Shown here piece after piece: positions 2,980 to 35,103 of a DNA stretch of 35,435 nt. The stretch lies in UHGV virus genome UHGV-0135847; one strand, given 5' to 3'. Every line of letters begins with the position of its first letter. Positions within the stretch are counted from its first letter, which is position 1. Made by a program: the position numbers and the translations under genes. The DNA comes from a virus. The notes under the pieces were generated by a model. That model did not search any database. It was not told the DNA's origin and saw only the letters and a list, made by a program, of their open reading frames with translations.

Positions 2980-3330
2980 ATGAAAAAAAACGCTGATAAT
3001 CCATACTCCAAATTTCGTAATGGCGTAGAACGCCATGTACACCACGTCGCTACCAGTGCATCACGTAGTAACAGTCGCTATAACCTGAACGAGACGCACG
3101 CAACACCGGATGGCCACGCTGTAAAACAAATCGGCGAACATGCCTGGCTGATTGAAAAAGCTGGAATCGTGGTCCACAAATGCCCACGCAATCCGTTTAC
3201 CGGAAACCGCATTTTTGCATTGAACTGCGGCGACAATCACTTCGGGCAGGATTTCACATTATACGAAGCACTTCGCACGGTTGATCGTCTGCTTCGCGGG
3301 CAAAGTTTTATTAAACAGGCTGATTTTTAA
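2980..3330 (+). CDS. Hypothetical early protein
   Basis: 116-aa ORF in early operon; no recognisable motif. Confidence 0.45.
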   Translation: MKKNADNPYSKFRNGVERHVHHVATSASRSNSRYNLNETHATPDGHAVKQIGEHAWLIEKAGIVVHKCPRNPFTGNRIFALNCGDNHFGQDFTLYEALRTVDRLLRGQSFIKQADF

Positions 3331-9206: not shown

Positions 9207-10166
9207 ATGAAAATTTGTATCGACGACGGCTCCACCAACATCAAGCTGGCATGGACTGAGAACGGCGAACGCCGCAACGCCATCAGCCCGAACAGCTTCA
9301 AGTCGGAATGGTCTGCGCCGTTCGGTGGCACGCAGCCCGCGAACTACATGCTTGATGGCGTGCGCTATGGTTTTGATCCGGTCAGCGATCGCTTTGTCCA
9401 GACGACCGACACGCAATACCAGTACAGCGATGTGAATGTCATTGCCATTCATCACGCGCTGGTCAAATCAGGCATCACGCCACAGGAGGTGGATGTGGTT
9501 GTCACCCTGCCACTGAGCGAGTATTTCGACACAAACGCACAGCCGGACATGGCCAACATAAACCGCAAAAAAGCAAACGTTATGCGCCCGGTGGAATACC
9601 AGAACGGCGAAGCATTCACTATCCGTAATGTACGGGTTATGCCTGAATCCATTCCGGCTGGCTTTAAAGCACTGGCTGACATGAGTCCGTTTGAATCCCT
9701 GCTGATTGTGGATTTAGGTGGAACCACGCTGGATGTGGCAAAGGTTCAGGGACAACTGGCAGGTATCAGCCAGGTGTTTTGCGATCCACACGTAGGCGTT
9801 TCCCTGATGGCCGATGCAGTACTGTCGGTGATGGCCACTAACGGTATGCGTACCAGTCACCACATCGCCAATACCATTATCGAACATCGCCATGATGAAG
9901 CCTGGCTGCGCCAGCACATCTACAATGACGCGCATTACGCCAGCCTGATGGCGGTTATTCGTGAAAAGGAAGAAACACTGAAACAACGCGTGATCCGCGC
10001 GCTGGCGGGTTTTTCGGGTTACGGGCGGGTGATGGTTGTCGGTGGCGGGGCGGAGATTGTGGCACCCGCTATCCGCGAAGCCTGCGGAGTTAATGCGATT
10101 TTCATCGCGGACGGGGTGCCACAGTTTGCTCTGGTTAATGGGCTGTACGCAATGGACAAGGAGTAA
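9207..10166 (+). CDS. parM: ParM/StbA-like actin-type segregation ATPase
   Basis: N-terminus MKICIDDGSTNIKLAW and motifs VMPESIPAG, LIVDLGGTTLD, VVGGGAE closely follow plasmid R1 ParM (StbA) as recalled. Confidence 0.8.
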   Translation: MKICIDDGSTNIKLAWTENGERRNAISPNSFKSEWSAPFGGTQPANYMLDGVRYGFDPVSDRFVQTTDTQYQYSDVNVIAIHHALVKSGITPQEVDVVVTLPLSEYFDTNAQPDMANINRKKANVMRPVEYQNGEAFTIRNVRVMPESIPAGFKALADMSPFESLLIVDLGGTTLDVAKVQGQLAGISQVFCDPHVGVSLMADAVLSVMATNGMRTSHHIANTIIEHRHDEAWLRQHIYNDAHYASLMAVIREKEETLKQRVIRALAGFSGYGRVMVVGGGAEIVAPAIREACGVNAIFIADGVPQFALVNGLYAMDKE

Positions 10167-10170
10167 ACCA

Positions 10171-10482
10171 ATGACGACACCAACCAGACGAATAAGTTTC
10201 TATCTGAAGCCCGCCGCCGTCAAGAACGAAGGCGAAGCATGCGCCTGGCTGGACAGCCTTACACCAGAAGCCCGTAAAAACGGCCAACGCGTGGCTTTTC
10301 TGGCCGGGCTGGCGCTTCTGAAAATGAATCCGGCAGAGGCTTACCGACTGGCAGCATGGGCTGACGATGAGGCGTTATCAGTGACACAAACCAGGACAGA
10401 ACGCCTCCTGTCACAGCCAGTACCAACCGCACAGATAACCAGTCAGATGGCCGGAAATATCAGGGCGTTATTTCCTGAATAA
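10171..10482 (+). CDS. parR: ParR/StbB-like centromere-binding adaptor
   Basis: 103 aa starting 5 nt after parM; pattern RRISFYLKP...WLDSL...AFLAGLALL...ALFPE matches R1 ParR layout as recalled; ORF track lists it inside a longer out-of-context frame (10036..10482). Confidence 0.7.
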   Translation: MTTPTRRISFYLKPAAVKNEGEACAWLDSLTPEARKNGQRVAFLAGLALLKMNPAEAYRLAAWADDEALSVTQTRTERLLSQPVPTAQITSQMAGNIRALFPE

Positions 10483-14878: not shown

Positions 14879-15032
14879 TGCTCCCCCTGAGTAATTACAG
14901 GAAGATTACCCGCGCGCGAAACTGTTCTCCTTAACCCCCTGTTCTGGCCGTTTTCTTACAACAAAAGCCCTTTGTATCAGCCTGTTACGCTTTGCCATCA
15001 TGACTGAAGAACCAGTCAGAGGGGCAAAAACT

Positions 15033-15869
15033 ATGGCTAATGAAAAAAAGACATCCCGCAAAAAGTTTCGCGTGGCTGTCTCCGGATCAACTGTTGATGG
15101 ACGTGAAATCAGTCCGGTGCATCTGCGTGAAGCCGCCGAGAACTTCAACCCGGATGTTTACGCTGCCCGCGTGAACGTTGAGCACTATCTCTCGCCATGC
15201 CCGTCAAGCGAATTTTCCGCAATGGGCGATGTCACCGCACTGAGTACGGAAGACATTACGGAAGGTCCGCTGGCCGGACGTACTGCGCTGTATGCAGAAA
15301 TCGAACCGACCGAGCGCATGAAGCAGCTTGTCGCGGACGGCAAGAAAATCTATTCCAGTATCGAACTGCACCCGCAGTTCTCCGTTAACGGGCGCGCCTA
15401 TCTGGTCGGGCTGGCGATGACCGACACCCCGGCAAGCCTGGGCACTGAGCGCCTGAAATTCACGGCACAGCAACGTCAGGCGGTAATGACGTTCAACAGT
15501 GTCCAGGGTGAAGCGCCGCTTATCTCCGAAGCCATCGAGTCTGAAATCATCGAAATGGCAGAACAACGCCAGGAAGAAGGCACCCAGTGGTTTAACCGCG
15601 TAATGGGGATTATTGGCCGTGGCCGCAAAGCGGATGACGCCAGTTTTTCCCGTATTCAGGAAGCGGTGGAAGGCGTCGCAACGTCACAGGCCGACATTAT
15701 CGACCGTTTTAATGTGCTGGAAACCCGCCATCAGCAGGACCGCCAGAAAATCACGTCACTGACCACAGAGCTGACAGCACTGAAGGAAAAACTGCGCACG
15801 CAGGACGGCGATCCGCAGAACCGCTTCACCGCAACGGGCGCAGCCTCCGACCAGCTGGCTGACTTCTGA
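15033..15869 (+). CDS. O: Capsid scaffolding protein (P2 gpO-type)
   Basis: Start at ATG 15033 after AGAGGGG RBS; similarity to P2 O (FRVAVSGSTVDGREIS..., YLVGLAMTDTPASLGTE) as recalled; divergent from Q/P operon. Confidence 0.85.
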   Translation: MANEKKTSRKKFRVAVSGSTVDGREISPVHLREAAENFNPDVYAARVNVEHYLSPCPSSEFSAMGDVTALSTEDITEGPLAGRTALYAEIEPTERMKQLVADGKKIYSSIELHPQFSVNGRAYLVGLAMTDTPASLGTERLKFTAQQRQAVMTFNSVQGEAPLISEAIESEIIEMAEQRQEEGTQWFNRVMGIIGRGRKADDASFSRIQEAVEGVATSQADIIDRFNVLETRHQQDRQKITSLTTELTALKEKLRTQDGDPQNRFTATGAASDQLADF

Positions 15870-20311: not shown

Positions 20312-20939
20312 GGCATTCACCCGCGTGGATGAAACCTTTGAGGCCATCCGCGACAGCCTGAATCAGCAGGCCATCAATAACATCGCCAGAAAGCTGGCAC
20401 AGGATTTACGCCGCGCCCAGCAGGCGCGTATCCGGTCACAGAAAGCGCCGGACGGGACCGCGTGGACACCACGCAGACGCCGCGTAACCCGGATACAGGA
20501 ACGCATTCGCTTTATCTGGAATAACGAAGCACGCACGCTGAAAAACTGGCATCACGACACGGGGAAATACGGGCGAACCATTACCGGGTGGGATGAGGAT
20601 AAAAACAATATCCGCACGTTTTACCGGGATGACATCGACCGTTTTCTGGAAATACGCACCCGGCGCATCAACCAGGACAGCACAAAGCGCGTCCCCATGT
20701 TCGTAAAACTGCGCACCGCCCGCTACCTGAAAGCCCGTGCAGATGCTTCCGGTGTGACGGTGGGTTACAGCGGCGTGGCCGCACGTATTGCCCGCGTTCA
20801 TCAGTTCGGTGAGCGCGATCAGGTTGCGCCGGGCATTTTCACCGATTACCCGGTACGTGAGCTGTTGGGCATCAGCCAGGCAGATGAGCGCCTGATTTAT
20901 AACACGGTGCTGGGCCGGATTGCGGAGGCTGTACGGTGA
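20304..20939 (+). CDS. S: Tail completion / virion morphogenesis protein (P2 gpS-type)
   Basis: Start ATG 20304 overlapping R stop; position between R and V. Confidence 0.75.
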   Translation: MDKAFTRVDETFEAIRDSLNQQAINNIARKLAQDLRRAQQARIRSQKAPDGTAWTPRRRRVTRIQERIRFIWNNEARTLKNWHHDTGKYGRTITGWDEDKNNIRTFYRDDIDRFLEIRTRRINQDSTKRVPMFVKLRTARYLKARADASGVTVGYSGVAARIARVHQFGERDQVAPGIFTDYPVRELLGISQADERLIYNTVLGRIAEAVR

Positions 20940-21517
20940 GCGCAGAACTCATGCGACTGCTGAGCAACATCATCCGCACCGGGATCATCTCTGAAGTTGA
21001 TGAGGAATCCTGGTGCGTGCGCGTTCGCAGCGGCGAACTGGAAACAGGCTGGCTGCGCTGGAACACCACGCGCGCGGGAGACTTCAATGTGTGGCTGCCG
21101 CCATCACCAGGCGAACAGGTGGTAATTGCCTGCATTGGCGGCAACCCGGAAACCGCCATGATAATTGGCAGCCTGTGGAGTGATGCCAGTCCGGCCCCCG
21201 GCAAAAGCCTGAAAGAAATCGTGATCAGCACGCCGGATGGCGCGGTGTTCCGCTACGACGCGGACGCAGGCGCGCTGAGCGCCAGCGGCATGAAAACGGC
21301 CACTTTACAGGCATCCGTCAGCGTGACACTGGACACGCCCGTCGTGGAATGCACAAACCTTCTGAGAACAGCGACGCTTGACGTCACAAAAGGAGGAAAG
21401 ATGAGCGGCAATATCACGCACAGCGGCGGCGATTTCACCTCAAACGGCATCACAGTGCATACGCATAAACACGGTGGTGTTAAAGGTGGCAGCGATTCGA
21501 CAGGAGGCCCGCAGTGA
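20936..21517 (+). CDS. V: Baseplate spike/assembly protein (P2 gpV-type)
   Basis: GTG start overlapping S stop (GTGA); C-terminal VHTHKHGGVKGGSDSTGGP matches gpV spike apex motif. Confidence 0.85.
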   Translation: MSAELMRLLSNIIRTGIISEVDEESWCVRVRSGELETGWLRWNTTRAGDFNVWLPPSPGEQVVIACIGGNPETAMIIGSLWSDASPAPGKSLKEIVISTPDGAVFRYDADAGALSASGMKTATLQASVSVTLDTPVVECTNLLRTATLDVTKGGKMSGNITHSGGDFTSNGITVHTHKHGGVKGGSDSTGGPQ

Positions 21518-23289: not shown

Positions 23290-25593
23290 ATGAGTACCAC
23301 AACACGAAAATTTAAAACCGTTATCACCGATACGGGTGCAAAAAAATTAGCTCAGGCAGCCGCGCCAGATGGTAAGCCTGTCCGCCTGACTCATATGGCC
23401 GTGGGCGACGGTGGCGGCACGTTGCCCACACCAGACAGTAAGCAGACCCGTCTGGTGCATGAGGTGTGGCGACATACTGTTAATCGCGTCATCCTGGACG
23501 CAACACATCAGAACCGCATTATTGCGGAGCTGGTTATTCCTCCTGAAACGGGCGGATTCTGGATCCGGGAAATTGGTGTATTTGATGAGCACGGCGATTT
23601 AATCGCGGTGGGAAATACTGCCGAAAGTTACAAGCCAGCCGTTGCCGAAGGGTCCGGTCGTGCACAAACATTTCGCACCATTCTGACCGTATCCAGCACG
23701 GCCACCGTGGCGCTTACCGTGGATAACACCATGGTGATGGCCACAGTGGATTACGTGGATGACAAACTAAAAGAGCATGAACAGTCACGACATCACCCGG
23801 ATGCCTCGCTGACCGCAAAAGGCTTTGTTCAACTCAGTAGCGCCATCAACAGCGATTCTGAAACACTGGCTGCAACGCCGAAAGCGGTTAAGGCCGCGTA
23901 TGACCTTGCTAACGGAAAATATACCGCTCAGGACGCCACGACAGCACGAAAAGGAATAGTCCAGCTCAGTAGTGCCACCAACAGCGATTCTGAAACGCTC
24001 GCCGCAACACCAAAAGCGGTAAAGGCCGCGTATGACCTTGCTAACGGGAAATACACTGCACAGGACGCCACCACAGCGCGAAAAGGTCTTGTCCAGCTCA
24101 GTAGCGTCACCAACAGCGATTCTGAAACGCTTGCGGCAACGCCAAAAGCGGTAAAGGCCGCGTATGACCTTGCTAACGGGAAATACACTGCACAAGATGC
24201 CACTACAGCGCGAAAAGGTCTTGTCCAGCTCAGTAGCGCCACCAACAGTGATTCTGAAACGCTGGCCGCAACATCAAAAGCAGTGAAGTCTGCCTATGAC
24301 AATGCTGAAAAACGTCTTCAGAAAGATCAGAACGGTGCGGATATTCCGGGAAAGGATACCTTCACGAAAAATATCGGTGCCTGTCGTGCTTATAGCGGCG
24401 CTTTGAGCACTGAAGCCGGAAACTGGACAACCGCTCAGTTTATTGAATGGCTGGATTCCCGTGGTGCATTTAATCATCCGTACTGGATGTGCAAAGGCTC
24501 CTGGTCATATGCAAATAACAAAATCATTACGGATACCGGATGTGGTGATATCCACCTGGCTGGTTGTGTCGTCGAGGTCATGGGAACAAAATCTGCAATC
24601 ACTATCCGAGTGACCACGCCAACAACATCAAGTGGTGGCGGTACAACCAGCGCGCAATTCACTTACATTAATCATGGGGACGGCTACTCCCCCGGCTGGC
24701 GTCGTGACTGGAATCGTCAGGGCGACTCAATGACCGGAACGATTAATCAGGATGGCGGAAGCCAGAATGCCTATATGTCTACGGCCTTATGTTCAGGCAC
24801 CAGAGGCGGCAAAAAATATCTCAGAAAGTTTCGTGGTGGAGAAGGAGATACTATCTGGCATGAAACAGTACAGGGCGGGGTAGTTCGCTGGGCGACAGGT
24901 AATACTGATGCTCAGGAAGAATTATCACTCAGCTCCGCTTATGGTCTCCGTTCTAGAGGTGAAATTACATCACTCAGTGCTAATGGTCTGCGCATTGCTT
25001 ATGGCAATTATGGATTCTTTATCAGGAATGATGGCGGCAGCACATATTTAATGCTGACGGCCTCTGGCGATAAATTTGGGACATGGAACGGTTTAAGACC
25101 GCTGACTATCAATAACGCTAATGGCGGAGTGTCAATGGGGCATGGCCTGAGTGTTACTGGTGATATTGCCTCAAGTACCAAAGTACGTGCCGGTAGCGGG
25201 AAAAAATTCACGGTCAGCAGCAGTAATACATCCACGAAGGAAGCCGCATTCAATTTGTGGGGAAACTCAAGTCGTCCGGTGGTGGCTGAATTAGGTGATG
25301 ATGCAGGCTGGCATTTTTACAGTCAGAGAAATACAGATAACAGCATCACTTTTGCTGTTAACGGTCAGGTATCACCATCTAACTATAGTAATTTTGATTC
25401 CCGCTATGTGAAAGATGTTCGCCTGGGTACGCGTGTTGTTCAGACCATGCAGAAAGGGGTGATGTATGAGAAATCAGGCCATGTAATTACAGGGCTTGGC
25501 ATTGTCGGCGAAGTTGATGGCGATGATCCGGCAGTATTCAGACCAATACAAAAATACATTAATGGCACATGGTATAACGTCGCACAGGTGTAA
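23290..25593 (+). CDS. H: Tail fibre protein H
   Basis: 767 aa; conserved N-terminal anchor domain, TPKAVK tail-fibre repeats, C-terminal ...YINGTWYNVAQV as in P2 H. Confidence 0.9.
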   Translation: MSTTTRKFKTVITDTGAKKLAQAAAPDGKPVRLTHMAVGDGGGTLPTPDSKQTRLVHEVWRHTVNRVILDATHQNRIIAELVIPPETGGFWIREIGVFDEHGDLIAVGNTAESYKPAVAEGSGRAQTFRTILTVSSTATVALTVDNTMVMATVDYVDDKLKEHEQSRHHPDASLTAKGFVQLSSAINSDSETLAATPKAVKAAYDLANGKYTAQDATTARKGIVQLSSATNSDSETLAATPKAVKAAYDLANGKYTAQDATTARKGLVQLSSVTNSDSETLAATPKAVKAAYDLANGKYTAQDATTARKGLVQLSSATNSDSETLAATSKAVKSAYDNAEKRLQKDQNGADIPGKDTFTKNIGACRAYSGALSTEAGNWTTAQFIEWLDSRGAFNHPYWMCKGSWSYANNKIITDTGCGDIHLAGCVVEVMGTKSAITIRVTTPTTSSGGGTTSAQFTYINHGDGYSPGWRRDWNRQGDSMTGTINQDGGSQNAYMSTALCSGTRGGKKYLRKFRGGEGDTIWHETVQGGVVRWATGNTDAQEELSLSSAYGLRSRGEITSLSANGLRIAYGNYGFFIRNDGGSTYLMLTASGDKFGTWNGLRPLTINNANGGVSMGHGLSVTGDIASSTKVRAGSGKKFTVSSSNTSTKEAAFNLWGNSSRPVVAELGDDAGWHFYSQRNTDNSITFAVNGQVSPSNYSNFDSRYVKDVRLGTRVVQTMQKGVMYEKSGHVITGLGIVGEVDGDDPAVFRPIQKYINGTWYNVAQV
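23818..24297 (+). repeat. Four tandem 120-bp (40-codon) coding repeats within tail fibre gene H (fourth copy diverges)
   Basis: Repeated unit KG(F/I/L)VQLSS(A/V)(I/T)NSDSETLAATPKAVKAAYDLANGKYTAQDATTAR read directly from translation and DNA. Confidence 0.85.
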
Positions 25594-25596
25594 TTT

Positions 25597-26130
25597 ATGC
25601 AGCATTTAAAAAATATTACTGCGGGTAATCCCAAAACTGTTGCCCAATATCAACTGACAAAAAATTTTGATGTTATCTGGTTATGGTCTGAAGACGGAAA
25701 AAACTGGTATGAGGAAGTAAGTAATTTTCAGGAGGACACGATAAAGATTGTTTACGACGAGAATAATATAATTGTCGGCATCACCAGAGATGCTTCAACG
25801 CTCAACCCTGAAGGTTTCAGCGTTGTCGAGGTTCCTGATATTACCGCCAACCGACGTGCTGATGACTCAGGTAAATGGATGTTTAAGGATGGTGCCGTCA
25901 TTAAACGTATATATTCCGAAGAAGAGCAACGGTTGCAGGTTGAAAATCAGAAACAAAAGTTGTTACAACAGGCCAGAGAAAAAACGCAGTTCTGGCAAAC
26001 CCAGCTTACTTTGGGGATTATCACTGATTCAGACAGGCAACAACTGATGAACTGGATGCGGTACGTGCAACAGATTGAAGCCACTGATACCTCTGAATTG
26101 CCCGTTACATTTCCGGAACAACCAGAATAA
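25597..26130 (+). CDS. G: Tail fibre assembly chaperone (P2 gpG-type)
   Basis: 177 aa [14 protein letters not shown]...[17 protein letters not shown] closely parallels P2 G N-terminus. Confidence 0.85.
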
Positions 26131-26168
26131 ACGATAAGACCAGAATACCGGGTCTTATCGTTTCTGTT
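26131..26168. terminator. Bidirectional intrinsic-terminator-like hairpin between convergent G and U
   Basis: 11-bp perfect stem ACGATAAGACC/GGTCTTATCGT with 9-nt loop, T-rich tracts on both strands. Confidence 0.55.
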
Positions 26169-26171
26169 AAA

Positions 26172-26666
26172 TCAGAACAGCCCTTTAACTGAACTGGCCG
26201 CGTTGTTAATGGATGCTGTCACCTTATCTTTGAAGCCGGACAGCATATCGCTGAACGATGAGGATTGCAGGCGCTCCCGCAAATCCTCATCACAGCGTTC
26301 AAGGGTCAGTGAAAATTCTATCTTTTTCGCCTTACCGTAGCGATCAAACTCGGAACGGGTCGTATTCGTTCCGGTCAGGACATACATGCCGTAAATCTGC
26401 CCGACGCCATCAATAAGAGGCCAGGGGCGTCCTGTATACGCCTGCGTGGTCAGCAGCGACAGCGACACTTCGCCACCTGTAATTTCAGGATAAAGCACAC
26501 CAGAAAGAACAATACGATCATCGCCTGCCCCGATATACTGCCATCTTGCTGAACGGTTAACGCGTTCATTTTTCACATGCCGCCAGCTTTTGCTTTGCTG
26601 TAACTGCTGATGCGGCAACGTGCGCAGCTCAAAAACAAACATGCCGTAGATCATCATCATGGCCAT
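26172..26666 (-). CDS. U: Tail protein U
   Basis: 164 aa; MAMMMIYGMFVFELRTLPHQQLQQSKSWRH start and overall pattern like P2 U. Confidence 0.8.
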   Translation of the reverse strand: MAMMMIYGMFVFELRTLPHQQLQQSKSWRHVKNERVNRSARWQYIGAGDDRIVLSGVLYPEITGGEVSLSLLTTQAYTGRPWPLIDGVGQIYGMYVLTGTNTTRSEFDRYGKAKKIEFSLTLERCDEDLRERLQSSSFSDMLSGFKDKVTASINNAASSVKGLF

Positions 26667-26672
26667 GACTCC

Positions 26673-29480
26673 TCAATCTTTATCGTAAAAACTGCCACGC
26701 CCGGCACGGGCGCGCCGTTCCATTTCTGCCCTGACCATTTCACCGACCAGTTTCGCCAGTTCGCGGGGATTCTGCGTAACGACGTTATGCAGATGAACAT
26801 GAATTTCACCGCCAAATCCTGAGGCAACAGGTTCCCGGTTACGCGAAGGTGCTGGGGCAGATGCCACTGGCGATCGTATGGCTTCCGCCACCGGGCGGGA
26901 GCTGGCCGCAACAACAGGGACCAGCGCCGGAGGCAGCGGGGCCGGAACCACAGGCGTGATATTAATTGCGGGGGCAGGCTTACTGACCTGCGCAATCTTC
27001 CGCTCCTGCCACTCCCCACGAACAGCAAGTGCGCGGGGCAGGTTCTTAAAGACAATATCGCCGGGGCCAATGCGTTTTTTCGTCTCATCAACCAGCTTAC
27101 CTGTGTTATCAGCAATTTTGCTGAGTCTGCGTAGCGTACCGGTATTGCTGTCTGTGAGCGGTTTATTATCTTTGGGTTTATCACCTCCGGTGCCATTGCC
27201 ATTTTCTACAGGCTTCGGCGGATTGATTTTCGCCAGGTCCCCCTGAAGCAAGGCAACCTTGTCCTGAAGAATGGCCGCACGCTGTGCGTCTTCGATTTTC
27301 TTTCTCGCCCTTTCCGCTTCATCCGGAAGCACACCGAGTTTTTCAAGTATCCACGCCAGCGTATCCAGCAACATTTTTGCAGGCGTCAGAACAAGCTGTA
27401 GCGCGCCACCAAGAGCGTTACCGAATATCTCGCCAGCACTGGTACATTTATCCAGCGTTTCCTTGCTGGACTCCATCGGTGACAGCAGCGATTTAAACCA
27501 GTTAAACACCTGGCTGATCCCGCTTCCGATTGCGTCAAAAACAGGACCAAACCGTTCAAAGGTTTCACGCAACGGGTTCAGCCTTTCCATAATCCCGCTG
27601 AACACCCCGGCAAAAAATGCCCTGATGGGATCCCAGTATTTCCAGATAAGAACGGCAGCTCCGGCAAGCGCAGCCACGATAAGACCAACCGGACTGAACA
27701 GCGCCCCGATAGCGCCTCCCAGCAAAGAAACGGAACCCGTCACCATTCCCCACAGCGCAGGCAACACTCTGACAACATTCATTGACCGGGTAAGAATGTC
27801 AAAACCAAGACGCAGGGTGGCCAGCTTCCCGTAAAGCACCCCAATAACCAGCGACAACGAGCCAATCGTTGCAGTCATTGCCAGCAACGCACCGCCTGCT
27901 ATCAGTAGCTGGCGCGTCAGCACCGGATGGGCCTGCGCCAGCGAGGTGATTTTTTCAAGCACCCGCGTGAGCCACTGCGTGACAGAACGCAGCGGACCGT
28001 CAACCAGATCACTGATGCGAATACGAAGACCTTCCCATGCGCTGTCGAGATTTTTCAGGTCCCCATCAAGATTATCGGCCATTACTTTTGCGACGCGATC
28101 GGCCTCTCCCCTTGCCCCCTGCAATTCTCTGGTCAGTTTTTGCAGCTCTCCTGAACCAGCCGCCGCAACAAGCGTCTGCAAACCAACGAACGCCTCTTCT
28201 CCGGCGATGTCCTTGAAGAAGGAGACCTGGTCCACCTGTCCGTATTTTTGTGTCGCCTTATAGAGATCAAGCAGCACATCCTCCATCGGGCGCATTTTGC
28301 CTCTGGCGTCAGCAACTGACACCCCCAGCTCTTTCAGTGCATCAGCCGCAGCTTTTGGCGGTGATGCAAGGCGGGACAAACTTGCGCGCATGGCCGTGCC
28401 AGCATCGCTTCCGCGAAGACCATTATTGGCAAGCATCCCGGCCATGGCCGCCGCTTCTTCAAGACTGATACCAAGTTTTGCGGCAACCGGACCGGTATAC
28501 TTCATGGTTTCGCCCAGCGCGCGTAAATCAGTATTGGTCCGGGTAAATGCTGCTGTCAGCGTATCGCCCACCCGGTCCATTTGATCGGCTGTCAGGTTGA
28601 ACTGTGTGAGGATATTGGAGCCTATATCCGCCGTCTCGCCGAGTTCGACGCCACCTGCCAGCGCCATATTAAGAACACCGGGCAATGCGGCCTGAATGGC
28701 CTGCGGAGTAAAACCAGCCATTGCCAGAAAGCTCTGCCCACTGGCGGCATCACTCGCAGTAAACTGTGTTTCAGAGCCAAGTTTTAACGCCTGCTCACGC
28801 AGCGCCTTAAACTGCGGGCTGTTTTTGTCGATTCGCGTCAGTGCCTGAACGCGGGACATCTCTTTGCCGAACCCGATCGCAGGCTGCAAAAAACGCCCGG
28901 CAGCATAGCCGCCCGCCGCTGCCGCACCAATTGCCAGCGCACCACCTGTTTTCAGTTTTCCCGCGGTTTCCTGCGCGCGCGAATACCGCTCACGCGCCCG
29001 CGTTACACGCGCAAGCGCCTGCCGTTCGCGTTCAAGCTGGTTGTTGTACTGTTCGGTGCGTCTGATGGCCTGCTGGATGGTGTTATCGCTGCCTGTCAGG
29101 GAAATGCCGTGGCGTTTCAGCTCTCCGCCAAGCTCCCGCATTTTCTGAATTTCCCGTGTGCGCGATTCATTCAGGCGTTCAAGCCGGGTGCTTAACTGCT
29201 GCATCAGCTTTTGTTGTTTTTCGCTGAGCACTGTACCCGTGCGTTGTAACTGATTAAGGGCGTTAAGCTGGCGTCGTGCTTTCACGATACCCGCATCCGC
29301 TTTACTGACAGCGTCGCGGGCGCGCTCAAATGATCGCGCCTGACGCTCGAGATTTTTGATCGCCCCCTGCGTTCGCTGGATGGAGTCACCAAACTGCCCC
29401 ATCAGGCGGCGGGCGTTTTCGGCAGGCCGGGTCAGCCTGTCAACGGCGCTGAAAGCGACCCGGATATCAAGAGTCTTCAT
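26673..29480 (-). CDS. T: Tail tape measure protein (P2 gpT-type); start uncertain (29480, 29489 or GTG 29516)
   Basis: ~935 aa, coiled-coil N-terminal half, Gly/Ala-rich hydrophobic middle, position after E/E'. Confidence 0.85.
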   Translation of the reverse strand: MKTLDIRVAFSAVDRLTRPAENARRLMGQFGDSIQRTQGAIKNLERQARSFERARDAVSKADAGIVKARRQLNALNQLQRTGTVLSEKQQKLMQQLSTRLERLNESRTREIQKMRELGGELKRHGISLTGSDNTIQQAIRRTEQYNNQLERERQALARVTRARERYSRAQETAGKLKTGGALAIGAAAAGGYAAGRFLQPAIGFGKEMSRVQALTRIDKNSPQFKALREQALKLGSETQFTASDAASGQSFLAMAGFTPQAIQAALPGVLNMALAGGVELGETADIGSNILTQFNLTADQMDRVGDTLTAAFTRTNTDLRALGETMKYTGPVAAKLGISLEEAAAMAGMLANNGLRGSDAGTAMRASLSRLASPPKAAADALKELGVSVADARGKMRPMEDVLLDLYKATQKYGQVDQVSFFKDIAGEEAFVGLQTLVAAAGSGELQKLTRELQGARGEADRVAKVMADNLDGDLKNLDSAWEGLRIRISDLVDGPLRSVTQWLTRVLEKITSLAQAHPVLTRQLLIAGGALLAMTATIGSLSLVIGVLYGKLATLRLGFDILTRSMNVVRVLPALWGMVTGSVSLLGGAIGALFSPVGLIVAALAGAAVLIWKYWDPIRAFFAGVFSGIMERLNPLRETFERFGPVFDAIGSGISQVFNWFKSLLSPMESSKETLDKCTSAGEIFGNALGGALQLVLTPAKMLLDTLAWILEKLGVLPDEAERARKKIEDAQRAAILQDKVALLQGDLAKINPPKPVENGNGTGGDKPKDNKPLTDSNTGTLRRLSKIADNTGKLVDETKKRIGPGDIVFKNLPRALAVRGEWQERKIAQVSKPAPAINITPVVPAPLPPALVPVVAASSRPVAEAIRSPVASAPAPSRNREPVASGFGGEIHVHLHNVVTQNPRELAKLVGEMVRAEMERRARAGRGSFYDKD

Positions 29481-29996
29481 TGTCTGCATTCCCGCTGCGA
29501 AGTGCCGCCCGCTCACGCCAGCTAACCACTTCGCCGGGCGTCATCATGAAGATTTCGGCGGGCGACCAGTTAAAAATGGCGGCAATATCCGCCACAAAGT
29601 CTTCTATGTGCTCAAAGCACACAACCGTGATCAGGCTTCCGTCGCCTGTTCGTTCTTCCCGCCAGAGTCCGCACCGCTCAAAAAATTTACGGCAACCACA
29701 CATAACTGAATAAAATCACGGGATGCCATTTTTTTGATCGTCACTTCATCCAGTCGCGGTGATGTCACGCGTGACAGCAGCGTAAACATGGATTCCGCTT
29801 TCAGATTCAGCACATCAGACAGCGACAAATCTCGCAGAGATCCAGCCTGCTCAATAGCCCCGGTGATCTCCACATACGTGATTTTTTCGCCGCCTCGCTC
29901 AATTGGTTGGGTAAGTTTTACGCCACGCTCGCTGGTTTCTTTCACAGTGTCAGCAACGACCGTGTTTTCGGTATCGATGTTTTTCGTCTCTTTCAT
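29467..29996 (-). CDS. Tail assembly chaperone E+E' fusion made by programmed -1 ribosomal frameshift
   Basis: Slippery T_TTT_TTG in E zero frame at plus-strand 29679-29685; -1 frame continues as FFERCGLWREE... (ORF 29467..29703). Confidence 0.65.
29631..29996 (-). CDS. E: Tail assembly chaperone E
   Basis: 121-aa ORF upstream of T; contains slippery heptamer near 3' end. Confidence 0.75.
   Translation of the reverse strand: MKETKNIDTENTVVADTVKETSERGVKLTQPIERGGEKITYVEITGAIEQAGSLRDLSLSDVLNLKAESMFTLLSRVTSPRLDEVTIKKMASRDFIQLCVVAVNFLSGADSGGKNEQATEA
29679..29685 (-). other. -1 frameshift slippery heptamer TTTTTTG
   Basis: Read on minus strand; codons AAT TTT TTG (N F L) in E frame. Confidence 0.6.
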
Positions 29997-30050
29997 CAGG
30001 AAACTCCTTTCAGTCAGAGGCGACGCACTGCGCCGCCTGCATATTACTTA

Positions 30051-30563
30051 TCAGCCAAGCCCGAGCGCGGAACGGATGCGATCGGGCACAATGTCCTTGC
30101 CGTCCTTCCGGTAAATGAAGTTCAGCAGGTCAATCTCCCACAACGGGCGATCGTTAACACTCAGCTTGTAGTAGGTGTTTTTAATGGCGTAAGTGTGTGA
30201 TGTGGCTTCGCCCTGTTTGGCTTCCCCCATATCAATTTCCGTCACACGTCCGCGCATTTCGACTTCATACAGGTCGCTTTCTGCATCGGTGTAGTATTCA
30301 CCCGCAAAACGCAGCAGCGTGCCGTCAATCGTGCCGCCATACTTAAGGAACAGCTCACGAACTGCGCCCCCCATGACAAAGCTCGCATCAAGCGCGGAGT
30401 CGTCCAGGCCGAGATCAATACTTACCGCCCCCATCATGCCACCACCCCGGTAGCTGTCGGTTTTGCGCGTCAGCTTAGGCAAAGTGACGGACGTCACCTT
30501 ACCCACTTCGTTTTCACCATCCACAAACAGCGTAAAAAAGCGAAGATGTTTTGGCACAGCCAT
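30051..30563 (-). CDS. FII: Tail tube protein (P2 gpFII-type)
   Basis: 170 aa; position directly after sheath gene; pattern as P2 FII. Confidence 0.9.
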   Translation of the reverse strand: MAVPKHLRFFTLFVDGENEVGKVTSVTLPKLTRKTDSYRGGGMMGAVSIDLGLDDSALDASFVMGGAVRELFLKYGGTIDGTLLRFAGEYYTDAESDLYEVEMRGRVTEIDMGEAKQGEATSHTYAIKNTYYKLSVNDRPLWEIDLLNFIYRKDGKDIVPDRIRSALGLG

Positions 30564-31747
30564 CAGGCACCTCCCAGCACCGCAAATGCGGGTTCAAAGT
30601 ATTCATCAGTAAACGTCTGGTAAAGCTCCATGTCTTCCAGTGGCGGAACGGGCGTATATTTGTAGCGAATACGCACACGCCCCTGACGTAAATCCGTGGT
30701 GCTGTTATCCACCACGTCATACCAGCACTCCGCGCCAATCAGTTTCCCGGCAGTCACCAGTGAATCCAGTTTTGCCCTGATGGCACTGATAACATCCTTC
30801 ACGTTCGCAGGCGTCAGTGGACTGTCGATGGTTTCAAACTGCGCTTCCGCAATTGAATCAGCCAGCACCTGTGCGGTTCGGGTATACACCTCAAAGATGT
30901 AGGCGTTCGTTTCCGGTGTGCGGTTGCCCCAGAAGCGGAACCCGTTGCGACGAATAATGGTCGTGATTTCTTTGTTGTTGAGGCTGTTGGCATCGCTGTC
31001 TTCGGCCTGCAACGACCAGAACACATGCCTCGACATCCCCAGCACATTTTTAACCGGAACGTTGGACAATGATTTGTGCCAGCCCTGCTCATGGTCAATG
31101 TACGCACGAAGGCCGCACGCATAGGCAGGCGCGGGGAACGTTTCGTTTTTGCCACTTTTCGGGTTGTAGGCGATGAAGTCCGGCCATAAGAGCATCACCT
31201 CACGTTCGTTGAATTTCTGGCGGTAGGTAATCGCCTCAGCCATCGTGTTACAGCCGTGACATGAGGCATACACAAACGCGCGCAGTTTACCTGCAATCAC
31301 GCACAGGGATTTTGTTACAGCCTCCGTGTCCAGCTCCGGCGCGGCCAGAATACGCGGACGGTATCCGATGCTTTCATCCTGCTCTGCAACAAGCAGCGCA
31401 TACATCCCCGTATAGCTGCCGTCATCCTCAGAACCACCGATAACCAGTTGATCCTGCGTCTTTCCGTCTTCTTCTTTGTGTTCAGCCACGCGAACGACGA
31501 CCACCTTTGTGCTCACCTGGTCTGCGATGGCCTTAAGCGCACGATAAAGCGTCCCCGTTGTCCCGCATTTTCCCAGCACATCATTGACGCGGGTCAGCAG
31601 TGTGGGCTTGTTCAGCGGGAACAGCTCCGCGTCCGCATCATCCGCCGTTGCCACGATACCGATAACGCTGGAATCAACATCGTTAATCGCTGTTACCAGG
31701 TCGGTATTTTCCGTAACACGGGCACCATGAAAACGAGTTTCACTCAT
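30563..31747 (-). CDS. FI: Contractile tail sheath protein (P2 gpFI-type)
   Basis: 394 aa; motifs FPLNKP, KLRAF, WPDF, EQGWHK, LIRRNGFRFWGNRT, YTRTAQV, YTPVPPLE parallel P2 FI. Confidence 0.9.
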   Translation of the reverse strand: MSETRFHGARVTENTDLVTAINDVDSSVIGIVATADDADAELFPLNKPTLLTRVNDVLGKCGTTGTLYRALKAIADQVSTKVVVVRVAEHKEEDGKTQDQLVIGGSEDDGSYTGMYALLVAEQDESIGYRPRILAAPELDTEAVTKSLCVIAGKLRAFVYASCHGCNTMAEAITYRQKFNEREVMLLWPDFIAYNPKSGKNETFPAPAYACGLRAYIDHEQGWHKSLSNVPVKNVLGMSRHVFWSLQAEDSDANSLNNKEITTIIRRNGFRFWGNRTPETNAYIFEVYTRTAQVLADSIAEAQFETIDSPLTPANVKDVISAIRAKLDSLVTAGKLIGAECWYDVVDNSTTDLRQGRVRIRYKYTPVPPLEDMELYQTFTDEYFEPAFAVLGGA

Positions 31748-31904
31748 AGCTTCAGCCCCTTGTATCCGTTAAATGATTCGGCAACAATCATCACCCACCA
31801 CGCGCGTAATCTCACCCCTGCGCCGTTCTCCCGACCCGGCGACAACAAAAAGCAGTAACCCCCTCTGCACGCACATGCGACCATGCCGCACAGGGAGGGA
31901 ACAG

Positions 31905-33014
31905 ATGACCGACACCACCATGCAATTGCTCAGTCAGGGCACAGACCCCGTGAAAATGCCAGATTTTGATATTCTCGCGGAGGGGAAAACGCTGTCAGGC
32001 GTGGCAGAGCGCCTGATGAGCCTGTCACTGACCGACAACCGGGGATTTGAGGCGGACCAGCTCACCATCACGCTGGATGATGCGGATGGTCAGTTGCAGC
32101 TACCGCCACGGGGCGCGCGCCTGACGGTTCTCATTGGCTGGAAAGGAGAACCGCTGACAGAAAAAGGCACTTACATTGTTGATGAAATCGCTCACGAAGG
32201 ACCGCCGGACAGGCTGACTGTTTCAGCCAGAAGCGCAGATTTTCGGGATGAATTTAACGTTAAACGTGAAGTGTCCTGGCATGATGTGACCGTTGAGCGC
32301 GTGGTATCCGCCATCGCTCATCGGTACGGCCTGAAACCGCAAATCAGCGAAATGCTGATGGATATCGAAATCGACCACGCCGACCAGACCGAAGAAAGCG
32401 ACATGTCCTTCCTCACGCGCATGGCGGAAATGCTGGGCGCAATCACCACGGTAAAAAGCGGTAACCTGTTATTCATCATGCCCGGCGGTGGCGTGAACGC
32501 ACAGGGCCAGCCGTTGCCCTCGTTCGCCATCACACGCAGCAGCGGCGATCGCCATCAGTTCCGCATTGCTGACCGCGAAGCGTATACGGGGGTACGCGCT
32601 TACTGGCTTGATCTTAATTACGGGAAAAAGAAAAAAGTCAGCGTGAAACGCCGCAAACCGCCAAAACCCAAAAAGGAGAAAAGCAGCAGCCGTGAAGGTG
32701 ATTATATGGAAGGCGCAGAAGGCAATGTGTTTGTGTTACGCAAGACTTATCAGAACGAGCAGGCAGCAAGACGCGCAGCGGCGGCAAAGTGGCAGCAGCT
32801 ACAACGCGGAGCCGCATCATTTTCCATCACGCTGGCGCGTGGACGTGCAGAACTCTACCCCGAAATGCATGGCACGGTAACAGGATTTAAAAGCGAGATT
32901 GATAATCAGGACTGGATTATTGCAAAAGCCGAGCACACTATTGATGACAGTGGCTTTACCACACAGCTTGAGCTTGAAGCAAAAATCCCGGAATGGATAG
33001 CGGAAACAGAATGA
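31905..33014 (+). CDS. D: Tail protein D (late control gene D product)
   Basis: Start ATG 31905 after GGGAGGGA RBS; ~369 aa; divergent from FI. Confidence 0.85.
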   Translation: MTDTTMQLLSQGTDPVKMPDFDILAEGKTLSGVAERLMSLSLTDNRGFEADQLTITLDDADGQLQLPPRGARLTVLIGWKGEPLTEKGTYIVDEIAHEGPPDRLTVSARSADFRDEFNVKREVSWHDVTVERVVSAIAHRYGLKPQISEMLMDIEIDHADQTEESDMSFLTRMAEMLGAITTVKSGNLLFIMPGGGVNAQGQPLPSFAITRSSGDRHQFRIADREAYTGVRAYWLDLNYGKKKKVSVKRRKPPKPKKEKSSSREGDYMEGAEGNVFVLRKTYQNEQAARRAAAAKWQQLQRGAASFSITLARGRAELYPEMHGTVTGFKSEIDNQDWIIAKAEHTIDDSGFTTQLELEAKIPEWIAETE

Positions 33015-33413
33015 GCAAATTAGATGTATTGACTCAAACCAGAACTGACACACTCACAGCACAGTGCCAGACCCAATCTGGCAGCCCGCTTTGTGCCTAG
33101 AGTAGGTGTTGCTTATGTAACAGTTAATCCACGGATAGTGGTCATGAATGCTGGTTGAAGTTGTATTGCCATGAGTGGTCAATTAGGGACTCACTTATTA
33201 TCGCGTGCTCACCATTGATGGGTAAGATCATGCATTTCGGCTACTGTACTTCGCGAATCCTCCACACACAGGCAACACCTGATTTAAGAACAGAGGGAGA
33301 TGATGACGCAAGGAAGATTTATTATCGTGCATGTGGCAGATGATCTTTTAGCTGCCGGAGTGATAAATTACACCTATTTTCGATAAGTGTTTTTGTTATA
33401 GAACATTAATTTC

Positions 33414-34553
33414 GTGGGAAACAATAAAGTGAAATTAGGAAGAAATGATAAGTGCTGGTGTAATTCAGGACTTAAGTATAAAAAGTGCCATCTTGGTCGA
33501 GACCGTGAAACTCCGGTATCCAAAGCCGAGGCACTGAAATTTTCAAAGTCTCTCTCGCAGAGAAAGGCATGTTATGCGCCAGCATCCATGCACGAAGATT
33601 GTGATAAACGCATCGTTCAGGCGCATACGATATCTAAGAGCAGTAGCCTTAAGGCGATCGCCGACTCCAGCAATCACGTCATGGGGGTGATAATGAACTT
33701 AGCAAGCCTGATGAGAAACAACGGAAAATGGCTTCCCGAGAAGATCGGTATCAATCAGGCATCCACTTTTACAGGATTTTGTGCAGTTCATGACAGAATC
33801 TTGTTTTCATGCCTAGAGAACGAAAAATTTACAGGCACGGACGAGCAGTGCTTTGCCTTAATGTTTCGTTCATTGTCTAAAGAAATTTACGCCAAAGAAG
33901 GGGGAGTGCTATCTTCCGATTTTGCTAAAAATGCCGATAAAGGAAAGCTACAAGTTGAACAGTATTATATTCAGAAATTAATCGACCAGCACCAAAGTGG
34001 CTTAAATGCAGCAATAATTGAATTAAATAATCTTAAAACTAGCCTCGACCGCATCCTACTTAGCAGGCAATTTTCAGAAATTGAAAGTGTTATCTTCACT
34101 TTTGCAGAGCCTTTACCAATTGTAGTTTCGTCAATTCTTTCACCGGAGAGGGATTTCGATGGGACCAAAATTCAGGATTTGAGCGATCTTACAGTGTCGG
34201 CGGAACAAGTATGTTTCAATGCTTTTTCCTGCGGAGGTAAGGGATATGTAGTGTTCAGTTGGCTGAGAACTTCAACAATTATCAGACGTTTTATACGGAC
34301 ACTAATTAAGATCCCGGCTAACAGGATGTTCAATACCCTTCTGTATTTTTTCTTCACAAAGGCCGAAAATACATATTCATCCCCTGAGTGGTGGGACAGG
34401 CTCAGTGATAAACAGCGAGAGAATATCGGCAACATGATTATGTCAGGGGTTGAATTTTTTGGCAGACCTACATCACAGGTTGATCATTCCGTTGATTATA
34501 ACGCCGCTGCACTTGAAGAGATAACATGCAGCAACAACGAAATTTGCAGCTGA
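33414..34553 (+). CDS. AT-rich cargo gene: protein with N-terminal SEC-C zinc-binding motif and ~340-aa uncharacterised domain (start GTG 33414 or GTG 33429)
   Basis: GRNDKCWCNSGLKYKKCH matches the SecA C-terminal SEC-C motif GRNDPCPCGSGKKYKQCH; rest of protein unrecognised; DNA visibly AT-rich. Confidence 0.65.
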   Translation: MGNNKVKLGRNDKCWCNSGLKYKKCHLGRDRETPVSKAEALKFSKSLSQRKACYAPASMHEDCDKRIVQAHTISKSSSLKAIADSSNHVMGVIMNLASLMRNNGKWLPEKIGINQASTFTGFCAVHDRILFSCLENEKFTGTDEQCFALMFRSLSKEIYAKEGGVLSSDFAKNADKGKLQVEQYYIQKLIDQHQSGLNAAIIELNNLKTSLDRILLSRQFSEIESVIFTFAEPLPIVVSSILSPERDFDGTKIQDLSDLTVSAEQVCFNAFSCGGKGYVVFSWLRTSTIIRRFIRTLIKIPANRMFNTLLYFFFTKAENTYSSPEWWDRLSDKQRENIGNMIMSGVEFFGRPTSQVDHSVDYNAAALEEITCSNNEICS

Positions 34554-34842
34554 ATGTTTACATGCTGTTAGAAAAAGCGGGCTGAACAATCATTTCGGGA
34601 TTGTAACAGATAAGATGGCACTGCCCGCTTGCTTCCCGATATGTACCTCAGCCAATAAACTTATGTAAGCAACCGATTTCCATTTATGCGGAGGTTATCA
34701 AAGTTGTTGGAGTTGCGAACTTCCGCTCTTCGCACAAAGCGTACCGCTAGGTTTGATTGTATTCTGGCTGCGCAAACTGTCAGTTGGAGTCTGAGCTATT
34801 ACAACTTAGAATAGCGGCAGCACCACGTTAAGGGAGGTCGCT

Positions 34843-35103
34843 ATGTTCCGTTGTCCGCTTTGTGGCGCATCTGCCCGAATCCGCACCAGTCGTCCGGAAA
34901 ACGATTCAAACACTGTGCGGCAAAAGTATTACCAGTGTAACAACCTGGAATGCGGCGTATGCTTCTCAACACTGGAAGCTTTCCATAAATTCACATCAAA
35001 ACACGCCTCCGGCGTTCACTCTTCGGAAGGTATCCCGTGGCATGAGCTGCCAGCTTCACACAGGGGAAACAATCAGATGAGTTTGCCTTTACCTCAGAAT
35101 TAA
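34843..35103 (+). CDS. ogr: Ogr/Delta-family zinc-finger late transcription activator
   Basis: MFRCPLCGASARIRTSR...YYQCNNLECGVCFSTLE parallels P2 Ogr MFHCPLCQHAAHARTSR...YHQCQNVNCSATF; GGGAGG RBS. Confidence 0.85.
   Translation: MFRCPLCGASARIRTSRPENDSNTVRQKYYQCNNLECGVCFSTLEAFHKFTSKHASGVHSSEGIPWHELPASHRGNNQMSLPLPQN

Follow-up and report, generated by a model that had tools for sequence, protein, structure and literature searches.

The window analysed here (UHGV virus genome UHGV-0135847; 35,435 nucleotides in full) represents an E. coli prophage of the Peduoviridae, P88-like and of the Xuanwuvirus type, in which the tail gene block from FI to U is inverted relative to phage P2 and gene D stands apart as a separate, divergently oriented unit. 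The flip arose long ago and is fixed in a large and named group of phages, the P88-like phages and their relatives; it is hence ordinary. The account as a whole, in which an ancestral inversion was fixed in this clade, FI and D would be transcribed divergently from a shared Ogr site, and convergent late transcription would end at a terminator hairpin, is considered highly probable.

Three sources are concordant on the gene layout: the open reading frames, Pfam domains, and the annotation given by RefSeq/PGAP to an E. coli S87 segment with 100% identity. The tail fibre gene H (23290-25593) and the tail-fibre assembly gene G (25597-26130) are located on the plus strand (Pfam Phage_tail_fib, Phage_fiber_2 and Caudo_TAP; PGAP), and together (23290-26130) form the terminal part of a rightward late operon that runs into U. 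The minus strand then carries the gpU tail protein gene, which ends the leftward FI-U operon (26172-26660; Pfam Phage_P2_GpU, 9e-39; PGAP), the gene of the tape measure protein gpT (26673-29480; Pfam PhageMin_Tail, 2e-56; start from PGAP), the E' frame (29467-29622), which is covered by a PGAP "GpE family" ORF, the gpE gene (29631-29996), the gene of the tail tube protein gpFII (30051-30563; Pfam Phage_tube, 7.5e-47) and, as the first gene of the operon, that of the tail sheath protein gpFI (30563-31747; Pfam sheath domains). Translation of both E frames located a slippery site of the T7G type, the heptamer TTTTTTG at 29679-29685 on the minus strand, from which the E' frame continues uninterrupted to 29467; by the P2 E/E+E' annotation, a -1 frameshift product E+E' is predicted for 29467-29996 (minus strand). 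Gene D, encoding the tail/baseplate hub protein gpD (31905-33014, plus strand; Pfam Phage_GPD; start from PGAP), forms a separate rightward unit, and an Ogr/Delta-like zinc-finger late activator follows on the same strand (34843-35103; Pfam Ogr_Delta, 5e-14; PGAP "Ogr/Delta-like zinc finger protein"). The P2-like (Peduoviridae) contractile-tail F gene set is complete, with FI, FII, the E/E' chaperones, T, U and D. The original prediction had read U, T, E', E, FII and FI as minus-strand genes converging on H and G, and D as a separate unit divergent from FI; all three sources agree with this reading, and the gap between FI and D measures exactly the 157 bp (31748-31904) then given.

The P2 RefSeq record lists FI, FII, E, E+E', T, U and D on one strand under the promoter pF, in agreement with the single rightward operon from which the original prediction had argued. 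This co-oriented architecture downstream of G is absent from the window, where U through FI occupy the minus strand and D the plus strand. By BLASTP, the FI protein is 46% identical to P2 FI over 383 amino acids and the D protein 49% identical to P2 D, and therefore the inverted genes are true orthologues and not an unrelated module. The window has orthologues of all seven products of the P2 F operon and conserves the T7G site for the -1 frameshift to E+E'; like P2, it encodes an Ogr homologue and carries an Ogr-type dyad approximately 80-90 nt upstream of FI. In contrast to the window, where the FI-U block is inverted and D is a separate gene with its own ribosome-binding site, P2 maintains one rightward operon with overlapping U and D genes, which follows G and the fun(Z) cargo locus.

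The same order and orientation, H-G / U-T-E'-E-FII-FI / D, was found in Escherichia phage P88 (Peduoviridae, Xuanwuvirus) and the close relatives grouped with it, Citrobacter PhiSM, PhiR44_2, Chuche and 500465-2. In the P88 annotation, H and G are followed by a minus-strand block U-T-E'-E-FII-FI and a plus-strand D. Between G and U, P88 additionally has an inverted tail-fibre cassette and a DNA invertase, both missing from the window; a further difference is the 1.8-kb YecA/SEC-C cargo gene region that separates D from ogr in the window. Nucleotide identity of the window with P88 is 94.0% over 92% of positions 25000-33100, and 96.2% over 76% of positions 1-25000. The ICTV genus criterion is approximately 70% nucleotide similarity; coverage multiplied by identity places the window above it for Xuanwuvirus, at an approximate 73-86%, with the left part close to the threshold. 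Salmonella phage SEN5 (Senquatrovirus, which also includes SEN4) and Klebsiella phage Kp4848-1 (Reipivirus) share the inverted FI-U block and the divergent D gene; their sheath proteins are 55 and 71% identical to that of the window, respectively. Serratia phage KSP20, compared by its sheath alone, has a close relative of the window's sheath (69% identity). In SEN5, Kp4848-1 and KSP20, the tail-fibre regions and the cargo differ from those of the window. Viable particles are produced by phages with this layout, P88 (PMC5285337) and PhiSM (PMC6456863), and also by Serratia phage PP4 (PMC9826266), which is near KSP20 and is likened here by kinship, not by gene layout. The inversion is not mentioned in any paper found, including those on P88, SEN4/5, PhiSM and Serratia PP4.

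A survey of databases extends this pattern. An 8.1-kb segment spanning both junctions of the inverted block had a collinear match (at least 80%, across both junctions) in 1102 of 5426 complete E. coli genomes. Among GTDB species representatives, 505 loci were obtained, and the best 80 of these were surveyed; 55 of the 80 had the inverted layout, distributed over approximately 23 genera of Enterobacterales, and among these best 80 of 505 loci the inverted type was met in Enterobacterales only. A misassembly, which the original prediction had left standing, can be dismissed on the strength of more than 1100 complete genomes and several independent phage isolates. Against a false orientation of the FI-U block in the assembly of the source genome stand the collinear E. 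coli matches, independently sequenced isolates that include P88, PhiSM, PhiR44_2 and Chuche, and the 55 species-representative loci (of the best 80 of 505) from other genera; nothing was found in favour of such an error, and its probability is practically nil.

The two layouts are also separated by sequence divergence. FI identity to the window is at least 55% in all 55 inverted loci and at most 52% in all 25 canonical loci among the best 80 of 505, and the inverted type is monophyletic both in the FI tree (57 of 57 tips) and in the D tree (55 of 55 tips); these are neighbour-joining trees with midpoint rooting and without support values. Monophyly on both trees points to a single ancient inversion within the set surveyed, the best 80 of 505 loci; the layout is common to P88, SEN5, Kp4848-1 and the 55 loci. 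The ancestral inversion or distinct lineage architecture postulated in the original prediction is substantiated; since this orientation is the norm in the named genera Xuanwuvirus, Senquatrovirus and Reipivirus, the layout is not unusual. The midpoint root of the FI tree falls between the two types, so that this tree leaves the change unpolarised and would also accommodate an ancestral inverted arrangement from which the P2 arrangement is derived; yet on the D tree the inverted clade is nested among canonical sequences, and the canonical order is found in distant hosts, which makes this direction of change very unlikely. Phage phiCTX, phage HP1 and the R-pyocins are also canonical. Canonical loci among the best 80 of 505 include those of Solimicrobium (L061), Collimonas (L068) and Acinetobacter (L081). 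The Burkholderia phages KS5, KS14 and KL3 were followed as a lead, which was rejected since they are canonical; in the gene table of KS5, D, U and T stand next to one another with the same orientation (PMC3091744).

In P88 and several relatives, a DNA invertase is located directly beside U, between the tail-fibre cassette and U, which raises the question of whether the FI-U block could be an active invertible segment, controlled by a Gin/Cin/Hin/Pin-like switch and seen here in one of its two states. The P88 invertase, however, adjoins a duplicated, inverted tail-fibre/assembly cassette that constitutes its obvious substrate. The window is without an invertase (a tblastn search with the P88 enzyme gave a best match of E = 2.9) and without inverted repeats bracketing 26131-31904, as no repeat pair in the window has arms near both 26131-26170 and 31748-31904; with neither flanking inverted repeats nor an invertase, the block is therefore no switch. 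Moreover, all 55 loci (best 80 of 505) and three phages in which FI identity is 55% or higher have the block in one and the same orientation, every E. coli match is collinear, and D would be left without its promoter geometry if the block were flipped. An active switch is accordingly regarded as extremely improbable, and the orientation of the block as a fixed trait.

At the convergent junction, the intergenic space between G and U contains a stem-loop (26131-26168; stem 26131-26162) that folds strongly on both strands, as anticipated in the original prediction of H/G and U converging across a hairpin. The folding energy is -20 kcal/mol (z -6.1) on the plus strand and -20.9 kcal/mol (z -4.4) on the minus strand, and 0 of 200 shuffled sequences folded as well on either strand. 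The stem is followed by TTTCTGTT on the plus strand and by TTATTCTG on the minus strand, with T contents of 6/8 and 5/8, respectively. This hairpin was not listed by a simple consensus terminator scan of the window; its fold and its tails make it a plausible bidirectional intrinsic terminator. P88 has a different hairpin in the same place after U, whereas the window has its own, and of 53 relatives, 36 show one of -12 kcal/mol or stronger that begins no more than 60 nt from the U stop codon, a count that, tallied without a random control, is suggestive only.

The divergent FI-D control region (31748-31904, 157 bp) was compared, in an anchored comparison, with the orthologous gaps of relatives, 54 of them unique. 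Its central feature is an Ogr-type dyad, TTCT-N12-ACAA at 31826-31845 (centre 31835.5; minus-strand reading GCTTTTTGTTGT-N12-AGAAC), the proposed shared activator site. Ogr dependence and the consensus TGT-N12-ACA have been described previously (PMC3931495); the dyad of the window, TGT-N12-AGA, has one mismatch to this consensus, and the annotated P2 Ogr sites are themselves imperfect. The dyad is conserved across the 54 unique gaps, with approximately 2 bits per position in an alignment where most remaining gap columns have approximately 0 bits. It matches TGT-N12-ACA exactly in most of the more distant relatives; SEN5 has an exact central dyad of this type and Kp4848-1 one with a single mismatch, while in Providencia relatives both half-sites are altered symmetrically (TCT...AGA). 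Where start codons are cleanly located, the dyad lies approximately 69-79 nt from the start of D and 70-88 nt from that of FI in the relatives. An additional conserved, GC-rich CGCGCGCG element is present on the D side of the gap in most relatives.

Conserved -10-like hexamers occur on both sides of the dyad, 43.5-48.5 nt from its centre. On the FI side, the predicted -10 hexamer GATGAT (31787-31792, minus strand) aligns with a conserved GA.tAT column block, and the -55 geometry of P2 would place the transcription start of FI near 31780. On the D side, the predicted extended -10 element TGcGACCAT (31876-31884, plus strand) aligns with a conserved CA..(A/G)T block, which reads TGn + nAnnAT on the D strand; transcription of D would probably start near 31890, just ahead of the GGGAGGG ribosome-binding site, with a very short predicted leader of approximately 14 nt. 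Both -10 elements (GATGAT for FI and GACCAT for D) are weak, and a sigma-70 consensus scan of the gap gave nothing convincing, as is expected because these promoters would be activator-dependent. From this arrangement we infer that one Ogr site drives divergent transcription of FI-U and of D. The back-to-back late promoters expected in the original prediction are consistent with the conserved dyad and the -10-like elements on both sides of it, but the two promoters apparently share one site and are not independent. Two independent promoters, with separate activator sites or with an Ogr-independent D, would find sufficient length in 157 bp, and the GC-rich CGCGCGCG element on the D side and the imperfect dyad of the window are compatible with them; yet just one dyad, in a central position, is conserved in the 54 unique gaps, and the symmetric -10-like hexamers fit the single annotated pP/pO site of P2, so that independent promoters appear unlikely and one shared site is preferred.

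The FI-D gap has a counterpart in P2, where the RefSeq record has a single feature "activator binding site; pO, pP promoters" (3057-3087); the start sites, at 3016 (minus strand) and 3127 (plus strand), lie 56 and 55 nt from the centre of this site and 111 bp apart. In both cases a central dyad lies between two divergently transcribed late units, with the difference that starts and Ogr binding are predicted in the window; P2 has no second bidirectional control region such as FI-D, and the gap resembles a second copy of the shared-activator divergent design of pP/pO. Within the window, a matching dyad of the same extended form (14942-14961) is present in the P-O divergent late control region, the internal analogue of FI-D, where its centre is approximately 81.5 nt from the start of O (PGAP, near 15033) and approximately 73.5 nt from that of P (14878). 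Exact TGT-N12-ACA has four matches in the window, fewer than expected by chance and none in the late control regions; relaxed TTGT-N12-ACAA with one mismatch has 13 matches, the P-O and FI-D sites among them, against 16.9 expected. As the relaxed motif is not enriched, the case for the dyads rests on their position and on conservation across lineages. The cognate Ogr/Delta zinc-finger activator is encoded in the window, and its gene product is proposed as the trans-acting factor for the FI-D gap.

Two bidirectional regions, P/O and FI/D, could then suffice to run the late genes, each having one symmetric Ogr site approximately 55 bp from both starts; V starts 12 nt after S, which leaves no space for a separate pV promoter. 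By this scheme, which is slightly favoured and is described in no paper found, the inversion would have been tolerated since a symmetric pF site could immediately serve D; if true, it would be a modest new variation in P2 late-gene wiring.

The history that these observations suggest would begin in the ancestor of a large Enterobacterales-infecting clade, in which the pF promoter, its Ogr site and FI-FII-E/E'-T-U were presumably inverted as one segment; this event would have severed gpD from gpU, and the arrangement would later have been fixed. The rightward H-G operon would since have met the leftward FI-U operon tail-to-tail at the presumed terminator hairpin, and FI and D would be transcribed divergently out of the 157-bp gap, both promoters being activated from the single dyad-symmetric Ogr site approximately 55 bp upstream of both predicted starts. 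Owing to the symmetry of the activator site, D would automatically have received a usable upstream activator element through the inversion; all that it would still have required was a ribosome-binding site of its own and a weak -10 element, both of which are present. The shared site offers a simple, testable account of how gpD could remain co-regulated with the tail genes after its loss from the operon. Beyond correct annotation, the significance of the inversion is slight: P2 synteny is not uniform across the Peduoviridae, and since a very common Enterobacterales prophage clade, found in approximately 20% of complete E. coli genomes, carries the flip, there is no reason to mark this layout as a rearrangement or an assembly error.

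Other permutations of the tail genes occur in Stenotrophomonas phage Smp131 (PMC3931495) and in a Rahnella locus (L072), both of which retain Ogr-type sites; they show that rearrangement of the late tail operons has happened repeatedly among P2-like phages. In contrast to the inversion that parts U from D in the window, the changes in Smp131 and the Rahnella locus are transpositions or exchanges, affecting V-W or the F block, that preserve orientation.

The window holds a complete P2-like prophage, with an integrase (1-1002), replication gene A, Q/P, O-N-M-L, lysis genes, R-S, V-W-J-I-H-G, the tail block, D, ogr and hok. Pfam backs every gene identity in the tail region, and the coordinates agree with those that PGAP assigns in an E. 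coli S87 segment matching at 100% identity. Genes H (23290-25593) and G (25597-26130) lie on the plus strand, followed by a stem-loop between G and U (26131-26162) and then, on the minus strand, by U (26172-26660), the tape measure gene T (26673-29480), E (29631-29996; the E' frame stays open as far as 29467), the tube gene FII (30051-30563) and the sheath gene FI (30563-31747); a gap of 157 bp (31748-31904) separates FI from D (31905-33014), again on the plus strand. In the P2 RefSeq record, FI, FII, E, E+E', T, U and D occupy a single strand under the promoter pF, and U abuts D. Over their full lengths, FI matches its P2 counterpart at 46% identity and D at 49%, and the T7G slippery site used for E+E' frameshifting is kept at 29679-29685; the tail block is therefore orthologous to the P2 F operon, but inverted. 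The comparison with Pfam, PGAP and the P2 record confirms the original prediction of an inverted tail block with D as a separate, divergent unit; the prophage has the full P2 F gene set but not the canonical P2 operon architecture, and this is true of its whole clade.

A megablast search of phage records with 25000-33100 as query returned collinear matches to P88, Xuanwuvirus P884B11, Citrobacter phage PhiSM and others. Escherichia phage P88 (Xuanwuvirus) was 94% identical over 92% of the query, and its annotation places U-T-E'-E-FII-FI opposite in strand to H/G and D; the remainder of the window was also P88-like (96% identity over 76% of 1-25000), and the prophage belongs with the P88-like phages. 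Misassembly is ruled out by 1102 of 5426 complete E. coli genomes, which carry a one-strand collinear match that spans both junctions and takes in 80% or more of the 8.1-kb query. The inverted layout recurs in Salmonella phage SEN5 (Senquatrovirus) and Klebsiella phage Kp4848-1 (Reipivirus), with sheath proteins 55% and 71% identical to that of the window, so that it is found in three named genera. P88 (PMC5285337) and PhiSM (PMC6456863) combine this layout with viability. Particle formation is also on record for Serratia PP4, which is closely related to KSP20 (PMC9826266), and a different permutation of tail genes in P2-like phages is known from Smp131 (PMC3931495).

For a survey across species, one genome per GTDB species was scanned by FI alignment, the best 80 of 505 loci were kept, and gene orientations were scored by local tblastn. 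Among these best 80, all 55 loci with FI at least 55% identical to the window were inverted (D shares a strand with ogr, FI-FII-E-T-U run on the opposite strand, and beyond U the genes J-I-H are again on the D strand), and all 25 loci with FI at most 52% identical had canonical P2 order. The 55 inverted loci represent approximately 23 genera, including Salmonella, Citrobacter, Edwardsiella, Enterobacter, Kosakonia, Pantoea, Erwinia, Klebsiella, Brenneria, Serratia, Pectobacterium, Providencia, Morganella, Xenorhabdus and Hafnia. In neighbour-joining trees the inverted type was monophyletic for FI (57/57 tips) and D (55/55), and the D tree nested the inverted clade inside canonical sequences. 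The simplest reading is a single old inversion in an Enterobacterales-infecting branch of the Peduoviridae; phage records, species survey and both trees thus support the proposal of an ancestral inversion or lineage-specific architecture. The original prediction had named a normal occurrence of this orientation in a known sublineage as one outcome that would refute it, and this outcome was found. The arrangement is already known and ordinary, because it is plain in many annotated public genomes and three ICTV genera; no paper remarking on the inversion was found in the literature searched.

The tail block could also be viewed as a DNA switch. This reading is rejected: neither inverted repeats bracketing the block nor an invertase gene was found in the window, and the opposite orientation is absent among close relatives in the survey loci and trees. 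The invertase of P88 adjoins U; its evident substrate is the neighbouring tail-fibre/assembly cassette, which is duplicated and inverted.

Several surveyed loci were unusual. A prophage with FI 97% identical to that of the window lies on a 226-kb contig labelled Vagococcus sp. WN89Y (NZ_JBQPOM010000071.1); this Firmicute label probably reflects assembly contamination or mislabelling. Rahnella sp. AA (locus L072, 8300-18600) shows a third arrangement on a single strand, R, V, W, FI-FII-T-U-D-ogr, J-I-H-G, with W and J flanking the F block and ogr; the canonical order is kept in neighbouring Rahnella species. In Trabulsiella odontotermitis (locus L021, 8400-19300) D is split into three frames, I and H directly follow U on the same strand, and J, V and W matches were not found; it is probably a degraded relative, a decaying and rearranged prophage.

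Late genes of P2 need the zinc-finger activator Ogr, which acts on TGT-N12-ACA-class sites (PMC3931495). One "activator binding site; pO, pP promoters" is annotated in the P2 RefSeq record at 3057-3087, its centre 56 and 55 nt from the start sites of P (3016, minus) and O (3127, plus). When the FI-D gaps of all inverted loci (54 unique sequences) were anchored on the best central dyad, GTTGT-N12-ACAAC was kept at close to 2 bits per position, with nearly no information in most gap columns outside it; in loci with cleanly located start codons, the dyad lies 69-79 nt from D and 70-88 nt from FI. Two more conserved blocks stand exactly 43.5-48.5 nt either side of the dyad centre: GA.tAT on the FI side (GATGAT in the window, complement of 31787-31792) and, read in the D direction, TGn + nAnnAT on the D side (TGcGACCAT, 31876-31884). 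These are the positions where -10 elements would be expected if the dyad were centred near -55 for both promoters. The window dyad (31826-31845; minus strand GCTTTTTGTTGT-N12-AGAAC) has one mismatch to the consensus, and P2's annotated activator sites are likewise imperfect; its extended sequence recurs in the P-O region of the window (14942-14961, GCTTTTGTTGT-N12-AGAAC). The relaxed motif was not enriched across the whole window (13 found, 16.9 expected). In Providencia relatives both half-sites are altered symmetrically (TCT...AGA), as expected if a symmetric protein reads the site.

The phage encodes an Ogr homologue, and D has a strong ribosome-binding site of its own (GGGAGGG); the leader predicted for D is short. 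From these sequence patterns we infer that one Ogr site may activate divergent FI-U and D transcription, with predicted starts near 31780 (minus) for FI and 31890 (plus) for D. The expectation of back-to-back late promoters in this gap is supported by the conserved dyad and the -10-like blocks on both sides; the shared-dyad reading is a modest, testable refinement. Under the proposed mechanism, the inverted piece would have brought pF and its symmetric activator site directly upstream of D, and a single site at about -55 to both promoters would drive FI-U leftward and D rightward; the inversion would have been viable because this site landed there. On the D side of the gap, most lineages keep a conserved CGCGCGCG tract between the dyad and the predicted D -10, approximately 31-39 nt away from the dyad centre; in the P-O region of the window a similar tract lies on the P side (14911-14918). 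In Serratia microhaemolytica a 22-23-bp unit (CTGGTTGTTTGTTGTACTTCTT) is repeated in tandem about six times by the D start, in the D-proximal part of the sequence taken as the FI-D gap, and contains GTTGT motifs that resemble the dyad half-site; since D start-codon placement was uncertain in some loci, this stretch may partly be D coding sequence.

The hairpin at the G/U junction (26131-26162) reaches about -20 kcal/mol on either strand (z -6.1 and -4.4), was matched by 0 of 200 shuffles on both strands, and has T-rich tails on each; it is a plausible candidate bidirectional terminator, absent from the output of a simple terminator scan. Homology with P88 resumes about 10 nt past the U stop, and the hairpin there differs between the two phages; 36 of 53 relatives have a hairpin of -12 kcal/mol or lower beginning within 60 nt of the U stop, a raw tally without random control. 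These observations fit a terminator at a boundary where variable tail-fibre cassettes swap. Between G and U, P88 carries its second, inverted cassette and DNA invertase (locus L001, 3773-5921). The window has neither, and its G-U spacing is only 41 bp (26131-26171); its H/G cassette is instead close to the cassettes found in P2-like phages of Yersinia pestis (96% identity over 25000-25915).

At the S-V junction (20939-20951) V begins 12 nt past the S stop, and no intergenic space, terminator, orf30-like gene or dyad match was found there. The corresponding stretch of P2 contains a terminator, orf30 and pV; the layout in the window suggests either that this lineage transcribes O-to-G as a single long operon or that S contains an internal promoter. 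Most relatives have ogr within a few tens of bases after D; the window has a 1.8-kb cargo insertion of low GC (approximately 43%) between D and ogr (33015-34842). Its gene at 33414-34553 encodes 379 aa with an N-terminal SEC-C motif, named "YecA family protein" by PGAP, and the prophage of E. coli S87 adjoins the host yecA gene. The YecA-family gene is closely preceded by an exact TGT-N12-ACA (33388-33405), which is too near for a -55 site. Between replication gene A and the pre-Q cargo region, as in P88, lie two genes (9207-10482) that are unusual in a P2-like phage that integrates: one for a ParM actin-like segregation protein (Pfam StbA_N, 2e-82) and a small one labelled "plasmid partitioning/stability". 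The window has an intact integrase; in the otherwise near-identical S87 prophage (locus L087, 36433-38667) an IS3-family element splits this gene, so the window represents a different strain or an earlier state.
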